Under the pieces are notes generated by a model. The model was not told where the DNA came from. It was given only the letters and a program-made list of their open reading frames with translations, and ran no database searches. From an uncultured delta proteobacterium (lineage in GTDB: Bacteria > Desulfobacterota > RBG-13-43-22), in NCBI GenBank assembly GCA_963743305.1, contig CAVUPH010000014.1:1-64000 (forward strand): a stretch of 64,000 nucleotides of DNA, given 5' to 3'. This document shows positions 34,574-61,896 of the stretch, piece by piece. Made by a program: the position numbers and the translations under genes. Position 1 is the first letter of the stretch. The number at the start of each line of letters is the position of its first letter.

Positions 34574-35819
34574 TCAGGCCATCAACTCCTGGACCGAAAA
34601 CCAGAGGAGGGCCAGGCTGAGCAGGATAAGGATGCCCACCGTCGCCCAGGACACTTTATTATAGAGGGGTGAGTTTTTAAAAGCTCCCATCAGCTTCACC
34701 CGGTTGATCAGGAGAAGGATAAAAATCAAAATAAAGGGCAGCAGCAGGCCGTTGATCACCTGGGAGAGCAGCATAATCAGAATCAAAGGGGCCTTAGGGA
34801 TCAACACCAACCCCCCGCCCAGAATGATCAGCCCGGTGTAGAGCCACATGAATTGCGGGGCTTCTTTAAAATCCTTGTTGATGCCCGCCTCCCAGCCCAT
34901 CCCCTCGCAGATCACATAGGCCGTGCTCAAGGGCAGGATGGAAGCCGCAAACAGCGAGGCATTGGCCAGACCCAGGGCGAAGAGGAGACTGGCATATTTG
35001 CCGGCCAACGGCGCCAGGGCCACGGCCGCGTCTTCGGCCGTTCGGATGGGGATGTTGTGCACATGAAGCGTGGCCGCACAGGCCACCACAATAAAGAAGG
35101 CCACCACCACGGCCATGATGCAACCGATAATTACGTCCCAGCGGACATACCGGTAATCCTTGGTCCGTATCCCTTTTTCCACAATGGAGGATTGCTGATA
35201 AAACTGCATCCAGGGGGCGATCGTCGTCCCCACCACTCCGATCAGCATCATCATATAGGAACGGTCCAGTTGTATCCGGGGATGGACCATTTCCTGAAAG
35301 ACCCCACCCCAGGCCGGATGGGCCATAAAACCGGAGATGATATACGACAAATAGATCGTGCAGGCCACCAGAAAAACCTTTTCCACGAAATCGATAACTG
35401 CCCTTGACCACCAAAAACCAGACCAGAAATCCCCCGGCGGGGATGGCTATATAGCGGTTCACTCCCAGGATTTCCAGGCTGGCGGCCAACCCGGCAAATT
35501 CCGCCATGATATTCCCCAGGTTAGTCAGCAGCAGGGCCAACAGGACCAGAAAGGTGATCTTGACCCCGAACTCCTCCCGGATCAGGTCCGAAAGACCTTT
35601 CCCGGTGACCACTCCCAGACGGGCCACCATTTCCTGCACCATAATCAACAGGACGGTGATCGGGATCAGGGACCAGAGCAACCCATAACCGTAATGCGCC
35701 CCGGCCAGGGAATAGGTGGTGATCCCCCCGGCATCGTTGTCCACGTTGGCCGTAATTATCCCGGGTCCCACGATACTGAGAAAAAAAAGGAGGCGCTTCC
35801 GGTTCATAGTCCAGCCCAT
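34574..35819 (-). CDS. Nramp-related divalent metal (likely Mg2+) transporter, frameshift near 35388
   Basis: GPGIITANVDNDAGGITTYS, QEMVARLGVVTGKGL, GTTIAPW. Confidence 0.88.
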
Positions 35820-35828
35820 AATCCGGCC

Positions 35829-37046
35829 CTATCTTCTCCGCCTCAAGGGGGTGGGCAGGAGGATATCGACGATGTCATCCACGGTGATGATCCCCAGCAT
35901 CTGGTCTTCCTCATCGACCACCGGCACGGCCATGAGATTGTATTTGGAGACCATTTCCGCCACTTCTTTCTTATCCACCTCGGAATGGACCTTTTTGGGA
36001 TTGGTTTTCATCAACTCTCCCAACAGCATCTCCGGGGCAGCCAGGATCAAGTCTTTCAGCGAGAGGACCCCCTCCAGATGATCGTCCTTGTCCAGGATAT
36101 AGAGGTAATAGATCATCTCCACGTCGGGGGCCAACAGGCGGAGGGACTGCATGGCCTCGGCCACGGTGGCCTCCTTGGGAAAGGAAACGTAATCCGTGGT
36201 CATCAGGCCCCCGGCGGAATCCTCATCGTGTTCCAGAAGTTCCTGAACATCGCAGGCCTCTTTCTCCTCCATTAAATTCAGGATCTCTTTGGCCTGGCTT
36301 TCGGGGAGGTCCCCCAGGACGTCGGCGGCCTCATCCGGTTCCATCACCTCCAGGACATCGGCCGCCTCCCCGGGCTCCATCTGCTTGAAGATATTGGCCC
36401 GGGTTTCCTCATCCAGTTCATACAGGGCTTCCCCGGCCTTCTCTTTCCCCACCGCGTCGATCAGGCTGGAACGTTCCTGCATGGAGACTTCGGAGATGAT
36501 CTCCGCCAGATCCACGGGATGCATCTGAATCAGGTTCTTACGGGTAATGGTCAGGGTCAGGTGATCCAGCCCCGGCTCCAGGGGCTTGAGATACTGCCAG
36601 GGGATGGGGGTCCCTTTTTTGGATTTCTTAAACCCCAACCGCCGGACCAGCCCTCCCAGCCCCACGTCAATCGCCAGGAGACCGAAATCCCCGTTGACCC
36701 GGCCCAGCCGGACATCATTGACCCGGACCACCTTGACCCCGTTGATATCGACTACCTGCTTATCCATGATATGCTCGGCGATCAGGATTTCGTGGGCCTG
36801 GGGCTCAGCAGAAACCAGGGACTCTTCGGAACCCCGGAAGGCGATCACCTTGCGGTTTAACACGTCCACGTCCATCAGGAGAATATAGAACAGCCCCCGG
36901 CGCCCTTTGACATACAAGCCCTCCACCAGGGGATAGGCCTCCCCCGGCACCACCCGCAGGTCTTTCACCCGCCCGATTTCGTTTCCCCGCTGATCCAGCA
37001 CGGGATGATTCAGCAGTTCACTTAAGAATATGTCGTCGGTGATCAT
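35829..37046 (-). CDS. PRC-barrel + MgtE N-terminal + CBS domain protein (no TM domain)
   Basis: HPVDLAEII, MEPDEAADVLGDL, SAGGLMTT, GIITVDDIVD. Confidence 0.9.
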   Translation of the reverse strand: MITDDIFLSELLNHPVLDQRGNEIGRVKDLRVVPGEAYPLVEGLYVKGRRGLFYILLMDVDVLNRKVIAFRGSEESLVSAEPQAHEILIAEHIMDKQVVDINGVKVVRVNDVRLGRVNGDFGLLAIDVGLGGLVRRLGFKKSKKGTPIPWQYLKPLEPGLDHLTLTITRKNLIQMHPVDLAEIISEVSMQERSSLIDAVGKEKAGEALYELDEETRANIFKQMEPGEAADVLEVMEPDEAADVLGDLPESQAKEILNLMEEKEACDVQELLEHDEDSAGGLMTTDYVSFPKEATVAEAMQSLRLLAPDVEMIYYLYILDKDDHLEGVLSLKDLILAAPEMLLGELMKTNPKKVHSEVDKKEVAEMVSKYNLMAVPVVDEEDQMLGIITVDDIVDILLPTPLRRRR

Positions 37047-37063
37047 CGGAATTCCCTCAATCA

Positions 37064-37534
37064 CTAAAATCGAAGCGTGGCCTTTAGCCGTTTGGGATTC
37101 AAGAGCAGATCCAGGCCGTCCTGGGCGCTGCGAACCAGTATGTTCGCCGCCTTGATCGCCTCCACCGCGCAGCCTTCCCCCTCGACGACGGCTATGCCCA
37201 CCCGGGCCGCGGAGAGCATCTTCCGGTCGTTGTTGCCGTTGCCCAGGGCCACCACCTTCTCCGGTCCCAGGTCTTTCACCTGGGCCTCTTTTTGAAGGTC
37301 ATGGTCGGCGCCGGTCAGAATAGCAATGGTACAGTTTACCTTTTCCAGGGCTTCCCTGGCCTTGCCAAAGGTATCCGCCGTGAGGATTTGGACCTGCATA
37401 AATTCACTTATTCGGTTCAATCGATCCTCCACACCCGGAAGAAGCTACCCCATCCACCGACAGGGTCCCGGTAAAATCGGAGACCAGATACTCCACCTTC
37501 ACTTCTCCAAAACCCGGAATATCAACAGATACAT
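37064..37534 (-). CDS. Soluble P-type-ATPase-like HAD hydrolase (frameshifted), copy 1
   Basis: LVSDFTGTLSVDG, LTADTFG, GNGNNDRKML, LLNPKRLKATLRF. Confidence 0.8.
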
Positions 37535-37724
37535 AATCTCTCCTGGAGGCTGCGCTTAATAGAGAAGAATAACCCGATAAGGGGGCTAATGACAACCCCT
37601 TTTTTCATGTAAAACCTCCGGTCCCGGGGGATACGAGGCGGAGATGGGATCCCCAAGGGTGATGCCCGGGGGAAAGACCGAGTCGGTCTATCTTCGGGCG
37701 CGGTAAGATCTTTCATAAATAGGC

Positions 37725-37916
37725 CTACAACGCAGCCCGAAAGCCGCCGCCGGACCGACCACGGCTCCCAGGGTCATGCTCGAAAGGCCAGCAAGAACGG
37801 CAAAGCAGCAGGGAATAGACCATCTCCGAACTGAAATCCATGAAGAAGCTGACGATCCCGGCAAAAAAAATATTTCTCTGGAGACCAACTATTTTTCTCG
37901 AATCATCTTGCGTCAT
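37725..37916 (-). pseudogene. Internally deleted MFS transporter remnant
   Basis: [21 protein letters not shown] joined almost directly to [14 protein letters not shown]; both match 50939..52130. Confidence 0.8.
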
Positions 37917-60564: not shown

Positions 60565-60582
60565 AGAACACCTCCTATTCTT

Positions 60583-61725
60583 CTAAATGCTCCGAAGTAG
60601 AGTAGAACCATTAAGATCGGGTAATTCATATTTGGGATTAAACCATTTCTGGGCGATAAAGGTGGGGATGATGGCGCTCAAGACCACAACGGCCACCAGC
60701 ACAGAAAACTGGGTTCGATTGATGATACCGGCCGTCAATCCAAAAACCGATGAAATGGCTCCCACATGGTCAGACCCGTGCTCATCAACAGGGTCGTGTA
60801 CATGGCATTTTCAGGAAGATATTTTTTAGCAGGGGATAAGACCCCCACTATTTTGGTGACTTGTTTGACCAAAAGCATCTGCACCAGCAAGCCTAAACTC
60901 AATAAAAGCAATTTCAAAGAGATATTCATCCCGCCGTTGATAAAGAAGAATGGGGTAATAATGGCAAAGGCCACTACCCGAAGTCGGTGCTGTAATTTAC
61001 GGTTTTCCATAAAAATTTTGGACATGGCCAGACCCAGGACAAAGGCCGGCAGGATGGCATGGCTGGCCCCGACTTTGGCGAAAAACATAAAAACAACCAG
61101 GATGAGAAAAAGAAAATTGATCTCGGCTCAATCACCCGGTCACCGTAGCGCTTGCAGATCCAGGGATAGATCCTGGGGATAATCAGAATCGAGCAGGGCG
61201 GAAACCCCCAGAAAGAGCAGGGTGAACCACGTTGAGCTCGAGAAACAGCAGAGTAAGGGCCAGGGTTGTTCCCAAATCAGTAAAAAAAGTGGCGGCCATA
61301 AGGATCTTGCCCAGTTCGGTATTGGTTAAACCGGTTTCGACCAAGACGGCATAGACGACGGCCAGGGAGGTGGTGGAAAGGGCTATTCCGGCGATCTCAG
61401 CGGCCGGCCAGGTCCAGTCCAACAGGTAATGGGTATAAAATAAGGCACCCAGAAAAGGAGCTAAAAAAGAAACGATGGTCCGACAAGAACTTCCTTAAAT
61501 TTGGCTTTCATGACCTGGGTGTCCACCTCGGCCCCGGCCAGGAAGGTCAAGAGGATACCGCCAAAGCCGGCCAGATAGGTACTCCAGGGAGTGGGATGGA
61601 GTTCCAAAAAGTTTCCTCCGATGACACCGAGGGACATTTCAATGATGCCACTGAGAGGCCCAGCTCAACCCGAAGAAGATTGGCGAGGATGGTGCGGAGA
61701 GGATAAATACGAAGATGGCGTCCAT
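60583..61725 (-). CDS. Cation:proton antiporter (CPA2-like), multiple frameshifts
   Basis: AGIALSTTSLAVVYAVL, AATFFTDLGT, LPAFVLGL, TLLMSTGLT. Confidence 0.82.
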
Positions 61726-61775
61726 TCAAAACCTCCATTACAAGGAAGCATCCTCACAATGAGCCTTCTTCGGCA

Positions 61776-61801
61776 TAAAAAAAACCGCCGGGTGGCGGGT
61801 T
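61776..61801 (-). terminator. Terminator in the riboswitch 3 expression platform
   Basis: CCGCC-accc-GGCGG-UUUUUUUU on the minus strand. Confidence 0.75.
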
Positions 61802-61846
61802 CATCCGTACTCCCTAATGCCCCCCACCGCGGCAGTGACCTGCGCA

Positions 61847-61896
61847 GTAGGAGTCATTAGCTCGAATTCGGCGTTTATCGGGGGGACTCCATCCCC
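61847..61896 (-). ncRNA. Fluoride (crcB) riboswitch 3
   Basis: GGGGAUGGAGUCCCCC-CGAUAAACGC...GCUAAUGACUCCUAC; TTGACA -35 at 61926-61931. Confidence 0.9.

Follow-up and report, generated by a model that had tools for sequence, protein, structure and literature searches.

Fluoride riboswitches in front of dynamin-like GTPase genes in a Desulfobacterota genome in which neither Fluc nor CLC-F was found

Background

How does a bacterium respond to fluoride when it carries the RNA sensors for this ion but neither of the two known exporters? The question is raised by the first 64 kb (positions 1 to 64,000, henceforth the window) of contig CAVUPH010000014.1 from an uncultured delta proteobacterium (GTDB lineage Desulfobacterota, RBG-13-43-22; assembly GCA_963743305.1), a 529-kb contig within a 4.9-Mb metagenome-assembled genome (MAG) of 43 contigs. 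The window contains three fluoride riboswitches, two of which precede genes that encode dynamin-like GTPases (Dyn1 and Dyn2). A preliminary description, made from the letters of the window alone, had interpreted the approximately 27 kb around these riboswitches (34574-61896) as one multi-layer fluoride defence that includes non-canonical export, the resupply of magnesium, spare copies of fluoride-sensitive enzymes and membrane remodelling. We arrive at a narrower interpretation, which we consider probable, namely that the window holds a complete fluoride riboswitch regulon, consisting of three units that are switched on by fluoride, in a lineage without Fluc or CLC-F, and that the dynamins are part of this regulon.

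Fluoride riboswitch RNAs bind fluoride and raise transcription by blocking the formation of a terminator (Weinberg 2010, PMC2864571; PMC11139923; portions of both). In canonical regulons this aptamer class (RF01734, the crcB motif) is found before crcB/Fluc, eriC-F/CLC-F, Na+/H+ antiporters and the genes for enolase, HAD proteins, pyrophosphatase and formate hydrogen lyase. The consulted portion of the 2024 review (PMC11139923) names antiporters, phosphatases, HAD proteins, enolase and ion transporters as linked to the riboswitch, and it places the antiporters, which are thought to serve pH homeostasis, second in frequency among the classes of genes found with it. The riboswitch class, its ON logic and its links with antiporters, enolase, HAD proteins and other transporters are therefore already known. 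What appears to be new is the placement of fluoride riboswitches before genes for dynamin-like GTPases, an arrangement that recurs in most of the related loci that we examined. No such link was found in the literature searched for fluoride or fluoride riboswitch in combination with dynamin, although it may be listed in the gene tables of Baker et al. 2012 or McIlwain et al. 2021, and the combination of fluoride riboswitch and Nitrospirota yielded nothing in the literature searched. The word 'GTPase' occurs nowhere in the consulted portion of the 2024 review (PMC11139923), and neither 'dynamin' nor 'GTPase' occurs in that of the 2010 paper in which the motif was described (PMC2864571).

Results

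Fluoride riboswitches in the window

Rfam cmscan at the gathering threshold (34 bits) returned exactly three matches to RF01734 in the window, all of them full-length (model positions 1-64) and with E-values of 1e-8 to 1e-9, and no match to any other RNA family. These are RS1 (43836-43902, forward strand; 43.5 bits, and 68.2 bits with our own model R1), RS2 (59986-60070, reverse strand; 45.9 bits), which has a 22-nt insert in P2, and RS3 (61841-61905, reverse strand; 46.7 bits). The three crcB-class aptamers reported in the preliminary description (43845-43896 on the forward strand, 59992-60061 and 61847-61896 on the reverse strand) are each enclosed by one of these matches, and all three (43.5-46.7 bits) thus lie above the gathering threshold of the Rfam crcB model. 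Extending the RF01734 search to the whole genome recovered only the same three riboswitches. A fourth, even a degenerate one, was found neither in a permissive Rfam scan of the segment from 31 to 64 kb (E<=1) nor when our own model was run without filters over the entire window.

The intrinsic terminator that had been described for each aptamer was recovered in all three cases, in two different arrangements. In the case of RS1 and RS2 the 3' tail of the aptamer also forms the 5' arm of the terminator, i.e. the classic ON design. The terminator of RS1 (43888-43930, forward strand) consists of a 10-bp hairpin with a 13-nt loop, followed by a U-run; with a loop of this size it was missed by a simple scan, and it was recognized by reading the sequence and in the minimum free energy fold (z -3.56). 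That of RS2 (59968-60000, reverse strand) is a 14-bp hairpin followed by a T-run, found by the terminator scan as well as in the fold (z -4.95). In the case of RS3 the element is separate from the aptamer: a terminator-like 5-bp hairpin with eight T residues (61785-61798, reverse strand) lies 43 nt downstream, and in the unbound fold the tail of the aptamer pairs with the G-rich segment in between. RS3 is likely a three-part switch, in which the folds would imply a coupling of aptamer and terminator. A sub-threshold match to RF03046 (Pseudomonadales-1 RNA; 61782-61935, reverse strand; 30.6 bits, the threshold being 68) overlaps both RS3 and the terminator that follows it, and probably reflects a fluoride-aptamer-like part that is embedded in that family.

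Dyn1 is a dynamin-like protein of the BDLP/IniA class

Genes were called with Pfam and NCBIfam profiles on the open reading frames (ORFs) of the window. The gene directly behind RS1 (43986-45746, forward strand) is intact and encodes a protein of 586 amino acids, Dyn1, that matches Dynamin_N (PF00350) with 101.6 bits at a cut-off of 27. Its G1, G3 and G4 motifs (GQFKRGKT, DTPG and NKAD) are invariant in 82 relatives, and the family to which it belongs is large, with 2056 representatives in a set of 1.84 billion proteins (E<=1e-30). A profile of the 82 members, compared with the PDB, retrieved the BDLP of Nostoc (2j68, 4.7e-51) and IniA (6j72, 2e-37), as well as the Campylobacter DLP (dynamin-like protein) pair. 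Folding without an alignment gave a pLDDT of 38, and the AlphaFold2 model based on the 82-sequence alignment (pLDDT 90.6, pTM 0.83) was used instead. The top Foldseek hits of this model are BDLP (2j69, E 2.9e-20) and IniA (6j72, E 5.6e-20), with TM-scores of no more than 0.37-0.45, a range to be expected if the hinge states differ, and the helical neck and trunk bundles are folded back on the GTPase domain, as they are in BDLP and IniA. Judged by motifs, profile and model, Dyn1 is a dynamin-like protein of the BDLP/IniA class, with a predicted membrane-remodelling activity. Apart from Dyn1 and Dyn2, which is encoded by the last gene of the unit behind RS2, no protein of the genome matches Dynamin_N strongly.

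Dyn1 shares with IniA (Mycobacterium), BDLP (Nostoc) and DynA (Bacillus) the GTPase motifs, a long helical neck and trunk and, as predicted, a tip loop rich in aromatic and basic residues, at an identity to the BDLP and IniA structures of only 16-18%. It has no transmembrane paddle: no transmembrane segment was found in the protein (best 19-residue hydropathy 1.6), and the tip (446-471), which is predicted to be disordered, carries a run of aromatic and basic residues that the family consensus retains. Unlike all three proteins, Dyn1 is encoded behind a fluoride riboswitch. IniA is induced by cell-wall drugs, and IniA and DynA respond to cell-envelope stress of several kinds.

Conservation of the association between riboswitch and dynamin

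Loci of the Dyn1 family were picked by protein similarity only and comprise 31 genome loci and 80 metagenome loci (loci, genomes and contigs are hereafter indicated by L, G and C numbers, respectively). Thirty of the genome loci encode close relatives (53-89% identity), and a same-strand RF01734 match is present upstream in all 28 that could be assessed, the other two having no upstream sequence. The riboswitch is located within about 260 nt of the dynamin start in 23 of these 28; in the remaining five the two are 1.4-2.9 kb apart, with genes for CPA2, USP (universal stress protein), CrcB or DUF190, or a transposase insertion, in between. The 31st locus, of Helicobacter (L064), encodes a protein that is 26% identical and has no riboswitch match. 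The metagenome loci, which range from 80% down to 33% identity, were scanned with our own model, built from the matches of this study, and 56 of the 74 assessable ones have a riboswitch (53 within 300 nt and 3 further away), which leaves 18 without. A recheck with Rfam at the gathering threshold confirmed 19 of 20 among the riboswitch-positive loci with the lowest identity or score.

In a midpoint-rooted tree of 97 sequences, made by a quick method, the entries that lack a riboswitch fall mostly in two clades, and one deep clade of 35 entries has it in all 34 that could be assessed. Because the riboswitch is found directly before the dynamin start across a tree that spans 33-89% identity, the comparison argues that the association is not a matter of hitch-hiking. 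The Dyn2-like proteins were considered as a riboswitch-free control family and had to be discarded as such, since 15 of their best 19 loci among 300 genomes of the phylum (L066-L084) carry a riboswitch as well; the contrast is therefore provided by the riboswitch-less clades and the Helicobacter locus, and not by a negative-control dynamin family from the same phylum.

The genes that recur next to the dynamin were counted over 110 Dyn1-family loci; as the metagenome flanks extend over only 1.5 kb the counts are lower bounds. CPA2 (19 loci), MFS1 (16), USP (15), tandem DUF190 (14) and CrcB (11) are the most frequent neighbours, followed by HIT, HAD and enolase (8 each), a small STAND ATPase and a prenyltransferase-like protein (6 each) and a HEAT-repeat protein (5). 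In several more distant Nitrospirota (e.g. L043, L063, L040 and L047) the order is riboswitch-CrcB-DUF190, riboswitch-CPA2-USP and riboswitch-Dyn1. These tandem loci thus share with the window the CPA2-USP and Dyn1 units, each behind a riboswitch of its own. Unlike them, the window has no CrcB-DUF190 unit, the slot after CPA2-USP is taken by a different unit that ends in Dyn2, and Dyn1 is located 14 kb away on the opposite strand. The order in the Nitrospirota suggests that the lineage of the window has kept the auxiliary units and lost the channel. Since the CPA2-USP and dynamin units adjoin a riboswitch-controlled CrcB elsewhere, they look like additions to export and not like replacements of it.

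Some loci deserve separate mention. In L035 an ISAZ013-type DDE transposase (PF07592, 458 bits) has been inserted on the opposite strand between riboswitch and Dyn1 (2541-4034), and probably uncouples Dyn1 from the switch in that genome. A STAND-like ATPase of 260 amino acids (AAA_16/NB-ARC/ATPase_2) follows the dynamin in L087 (2416-3302), L040 (5756-6544) and four more loci; that of L087 has its own upstream fluoride riboswitch. The Dyn1 proteins of L048 and L062, the one assigned to the Spirochaetota and the other to the Nitrospirota, coincide on the tree (branch length 0), and their riboswitches are identical as well; probably one of the two bins has been mis-assigned.

Absence of Fluc/CrcB and CLC-F

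The preliminary description had noted that the window contains no Fluc/CrcB or CLC-F gene, and this extends to the genome as a whole, with the caveat for any genome-wide absence that the MAG is 90% complete and 5.7% contaminated. The search for CrcB (Pfam PF02537) gave no match in the whole genome, while the same search was positive in 11 of 14 control genomes, and a tblastn search of the genome with three CrcB proteins and one DUF190 protein of Nitrospirota yielded only noise (best E 0.46). There is a single CLC gene, on contig C37, with no riboswitch nearby. As no NCBIfam model separates CLC-F from other CLCs we relied on published motifs: CLC-F proteins are marked by GNNLI or GMGLI, by GREGT/V and by GEVTP (PMC11139923, in part), and the protein on C37, which reads GHGTE, GKEGP and GIVTP at these positions, has none of the three signatures. 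Among 18 relatives from the same family ten have fluoride riboswitches, and only one (G016) has CrcB, which in that genome directly follows a riboswitch; the CLC-F signature is absent from every CLC found in 21 genomes of the family. Because CrcB occurs in only one of the 18 relatives and the signature in none of the 21 genomes, we take the absence of both exporters to be a trait of the lineage rather than a gap in the assembly.

Compared with canonical fluoride riboswitch regulons, the window shows the same aptamer class (RF01734), the same terminator-based ON logic and the same placement before a cation/proton antiporter; it differs in that two of the three switches precede dynamin-like GTPases and in that Fluc and CLC-F were not found in the genome. 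A TauE/SafE-family anion permease is encoded directly upstream of RS3 (61947-62924, reverse strand), and TauE homologues adjoin riboswitch-dynamin loci in G002 (L018/L057), L039, L055, L058 and L137. CPA2, MFS1 and TauE are no more than candidate exit routes for fluoride.

The three units behind the riboswitches

Control by a riboswitch can, from the sequence, be argued for three units only, i.e. CPA2-USP behind RS3, Dyn1-HIT behind RS1 and the row of prenyltransferase-like, HEAT, PAP2, MFS and Dyn2 genes behind RS2. In the case of RS1, Dyn1 is followed at 170 nt by a gene for a HIT-family hydrolase (45917-46378, forward strand; PF01230, 68.4 bits), which probably is on the same transcript and which adjoins the dynamin in the 8 loci counted above. 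HIT enzymes can form and hydrolyse nucleoside 5'-phosphorofluoridates; such chemistry would tie the partner of Dyn1 directly to fluoride.

RS3 is followed by a gene for a CPA2-type cation/proton antiporter (60583-61757, reverse strand; Na_H_Exchanger on a fragment) with about eight small indels and then by one for a universal stress protein (60123-60564, reverse strand), the halves of which match PF00582 on two frames as a result of a single frameshift at about 60343. The CPA2 gene is split over three frames in the window, and its fragments are colinear and in a single frame in the relatives L020, L024 and L028. The intact orthologue of L028 (385 amino acids) scores 106 bits with TIGR00932, below the cut-off of 238. 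A riboswitch followed by CPA2 recurs in loci of G002, G003, G006, G008, G011, G012, G013 and G017. In L056 two tandem fluoride riboswitches, 77 nt apart (7781-7986, reverse strand), precede one CPA2 gene; one of the pair resembles the RS2 type and the other the RS3 type, and the tandem arrangement may sharpen the response.

The unit behind RS2, all on the reverse strand, starts with a prenyltransferase-like alpha/alpha-toroid protein (58889-59770; PF00432, 42.4 bits), followed by a HEAT-repeat protein (58079-58876; HEAT_2, 87.1 bits), a PAP2 phosphatase with about two frameshifts (57033-57600; PF01569 on an ORF of 146 amino acids, the third PAP2 motif being in another frame) and the N-terminal half of an MFS transporter (56407-56949; 180 amino acids, MFS_1 positions 3-147 of 347), which ends in stops and has no continuation in any frame. 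An ORF of 83 amino acids before Dyn2 (56118-56369) was at one point considered DUF6062-like and was dropped, as it has no Pfam match. The last gene, Dyn2 (54353-56128), is intact and encodes a dynamin-like GTPase of 591 amino acids (Dynamin_N, 83.7 bits). When aligned with the Dyn1 family (hhalign), it matches in the GTPase domain only (residues 105-317, 30% identity), from which we conclude that Dyn2 is a GTPase of the dynamin superfamily and not a member of the Dyn1 family over its full length. The GC (guanine plus cytosine) content of the piece that contains Dyn2 and the adjacent ApgM gene (53000-56000) is 62-64%, against 42-50% for the neighbours, which suggests that this piece was recently acquired.

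The partners of Dyn2 are nevertheless not peculiar to the window. Prenyltransferase-like homologues stand beside the dynamin in 6 of the 110 loci and abut it on the same strand in four (L137, L152, L161 and L162), the order in L161 being that of the RS2 unit, i.e. riboswitch, prenyltransferase-like gene and dynamin; in L034, the closest relative, a HEAT protein comes directly after an RS2-like riboswitch. As its partners recur beside dynamins, the RS2 unit appears to be a variant of a recurrent theme and not a chance assembly of genes.

The surrounding genes

The other genes of the region have no riboswitch before them. On the left, the reverse strand encodes an Nramp protein (one frameshift), a soluble protein with MgtE_N and CBS domains and a HAD fragment (34574-37432), a stretch that is syntenic with a dynamin locus in G002, a genome of the same genus. 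Next is the gene for enolase (38067-39350, forward strand; TIGR01060, 646 bits), whose start agrees with that of the relatives' ORFs (about 38067). Between enolase and RS1 the reverse strand (39538-43516) holds a cluster of a lysine-2,3-aminomutase-like radical SAM protein, a Ddl-like ATP-grasp protein and a fusion of ATP-grasp and GNAT, which is also found, at 86-88% identity, beside MFS1 and riboswitch-Dyn1 in G012 (L026). This cluster may make a solute or peptide derived from beta-lysine; with no evident tie to fluoride, it probably is functionally outside the fluoride response.

Downstream of HIT, at a distance of 620 nt and behind a promoter-like site (46412-46440), lies a P-type ATPase of the MgtA type (46999-49582, forward strand), which is split over at least three frames, the Pfam domains E1-E2_ATPase, Hydrolase and Cation_ATPase_C being spread over three ORFs. 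Two of the fragments match TIGR01524 better than any other family (454 and 330 bits), the equivalog cut-off of 610.75 bits being out of reach of a single ORF when the gene is frameshifted. MgtA is followed on the forward strand by a protein with a PTS-EIIA domain and on the reverse strand by MFS1, the start of which is frameshifted, and a HAD-like hydrolase (50436-52126). Finally, there are a ChrB_N protein (52279-52920, forward strand) and a frameshifted phosphoglycerate mutase of the ApgM type (53043-54243, forward strand; 63% GC), convergent with Dyn2, of which a second copy is located at the end of contig C7. ChrA chromate-transporter genes were seen in six dynamin loci (L135, L129, L046, L057, L060 and L036); together with ChrB_N they form another oxyanion-related neighbour that recurs around the fluoride units.

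These genes bear on the reading of the entire 27 kb as a single co-regulated defence, in which MFS or CPA2 would take over export from Fluc, metal ions would be resupplied by MgtA and Nramp, and enolase, ApgM and the phosphatases would be spares. The components that such a defence calls for are indeed all present (an MgtA-like ATPase, Nramp, MgtE_N-CBS, HAD, PAP2, ApgM, MFS and enolase), its left part is syntenic with the G002 dynamin locus, ApgM has its second copy on C7, and the types of gene named in the review's consulted portion (antiporters, phosphatases, HAD, enolase and ion transporters; PMC11139923) match as well. MFS, HAD, enolase and HIT recur beside riboswitch-dynamin loci elsewhere, MFS1, HAD and enolase often downstream on the same strand. 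Because they are recurrent neighbours of such loci, MFS1, HAD, enolase and HIT may belong with them functionally.

We nevertheless consider it unlikely that the region works as one defence. There are only three riboswitches, and none of them precedes Nramp, MgtE_N-CBS, HAD, enolase, the aminomutase cluster, MFS1-HAD, ChrB_N or ApgM, while an Rfam scan at E<=1 detected neither a magnesium-sensing nor any other RNA upstream of MgtA, enolase or MFS1. Of the proposed resupply of magnesium, the MgtA-like character of the ATPase is supported; riboswitch control of MgtA and Nramp is not. The idea of a spare enolase had to be given up: the gene is the only copy found in the genome (one PF00113 match) and therefore is the housekeeping copy. 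Furthermore, there are Nitrospirota in which CPA2-USP and the dynamin occur together with a CrcB that is under riboswitch control; by origin they are therefore no substitutes for it. The aminomutase/ATP-grasp cluster has no known link with fluoride. The GC content swings from 42 to 64% along the region (47-50% for Dyn1, 54% for the contig), which suggests a mosaic rather than a single unit. Of the island as originally described there remain CPA2, USP and both dynamins, all behind riboswitches, in three units that start at one; the dynamins, which had been named last, for membrane remodelling, turn out to be its most distinctive and conserved part.

Frameshifts: assembly error or decay

About ten genes in the window are broken, with roughly 20 indels between 46 and 62 kb. 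Nramp, MgtA, ApgM, PAP2, USP, CPA2, one HAD gene and the start of MFS1 are frameshifted, and the second MFS gene, behind RS2, is truncated. We regard it as likely that the frameshifts are consensus errors of an assembly with a low number of contigs, because the damage consists of indels only and is found elsewhere in the assembly as well. The CPA2-USP stretch differs from three intact orthologues by about nine indels of one or two bases, most of them outside long homopolymers; the CPA2 fragments contain no stop codons between the shifts and are 83-92% identical to the intact orthologues, like intact genes. Contigs from three public short-read runs keep the frame intact and differ by indels at the same places, the window alone being out of frame; at 90-95% likeness these contigs represent other strains, and a further run gave two nearly identical pieces of 151 nt that cover no frameshift site. 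In the sister assembly G002, which also has few contigs, it is Dyn1 that is split and Nramp that is whole, the opposite of the window, and in a profile of stop-to-stop ORF coverage the region did not stand out from the remainder of the genome.

The same data have to be weighed against the possibility that the regulon is decaying in this genome, with true pseudogenes, in a strain that has ceased to encounter fluoride. Broken genes are enriched: by comparison with the ORFs of relatives, 4 of 15 genes in the region are split over frames versus 6 of 58 elsewhere, and at least five more in the region were seen directly. CPA2 has some eight indels within 1.2 kb and the neighbouring 1.7-kb dynamin genes have none, all relatives and the three short-read runs are intact at the same places, and the MFS gene behind RS2 lacks its second half, a truncation that looks real. 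Decay is nonetheless improbable given the absence of in-frame stops between the shifts, the undiminished identity of the fragments, the occurrence of frameshifts throughout the genome and at other genes of the sister assembly, and the fact that all three riboswitches score well above threshold. In any case, no gene here should be labelled a pseudogene until the frameshifts of the assembly have been polished.

Discussion

The regulon of three units that we propose would work as follows. Bound fluoride would keep the 3' tail of the aptamer in a pseudoknot, so that the terminator cannot form. RS3 would then drive the short CPA2 antiporter and the universal stress protein, RS1 would drive Dyn1, probably with HIT, and RS2 would drive the prenyltransferase-like, HEAT and PAP2 proteins, the MFS remnant and the foreign-looking Dyn2. 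The antiporter would counter the proton load and the accumulation of fluoride that is driven by the pH gradient, and the dynamins would seal, fuse or pinch off the cytoplasmic membrane and so preserve its tightness when it is disturbed by fluoride and by magnesium-fluoride complexes. Such a role in membrane maintenance under fluoride, suggested by the likeness to the activity of IniA and DynA, has in our estimate a chance that is almost but not quite even. Metal-fluoride complexes mimic the gamma-phosphate, and a dynamin GTPase that buffers or senses these complexes is conceivable too; we think this less likely.

Several points weigh against this interpretation. The 18 of 74 metagenome loci without a riboswitch, mostly in two clades, imply that the family is not tied to fluoride everywhere. 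No orthologue of Dyn2 above 39% identity was found in the 300 genomes of the phylum or in the five nearest genomes. Between the HEAT and PAP2 genes there is a gap of 600 nt with no clear gene, and the extents of the transcripts are putative. The frameshifts are denser in the region than elsewhere and the MFS gene behind RS2 is truly truncated. A search of sequencing runs listed no RNA run with the locus, and no run of any kind contained more than 0.15 of its words. Fluoride induction of the units is presumed from the class of the riboswitch, and the repair of membranes by the dynamins is an analogy only.

That the dynamins are general envelope-stress proteins which merely share a transcript or neighbourhood with the true fluoride genes would agree with the behaviour of IniA and DynA and with the riboswitch-less metagenome loci, but is very unlikely: the riboswitch immediately precedes the dynamin gene in 23 of the 28 genome loci and in 53 of the 74 metagenome loci, often as a dedicated second or third one, and this holds across the depth of the tree (33-89% identity).

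For the lineage itself the regulon of three units raises a physiological question: with CrcB absent in 17 of the 18 family relatives searched, fluoride sensing has been kept without either known exporter, and how, then, does fluoride leave the cell? It also follows that the 27 kb should not be read as one unit. A more far-reaching and more tentative proposal, to which we give roughly one chance in three, is that the multi-clade family of dynamin GTPases of about 590 residues is a dedicated effector of fluoride stress and that, in lineages that lack Fluc, membrane repair or vesicle shedding by dynamin together with CPA2 replaces export through a channel.

The physiological role of bacterial dynamins is, to our knowledge, a long-standing open question, and we know of few with a known inducing signal. 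A ligand-specific RNA switch names such a signal for a whole family of dynamins, and thereby opens their role to simple experiments with NaF (sodium fluoride). To the known responses to fluoride, i.e. export, pH and ion homeostasis, phosphatases and enolase, it would add the remodelling of membranes. If the proposal of a dedicated effector is true, an entire family of bacterial dynamins would for the first time have a defined physiological trigger, and fluoride resistance would gain a new arm.

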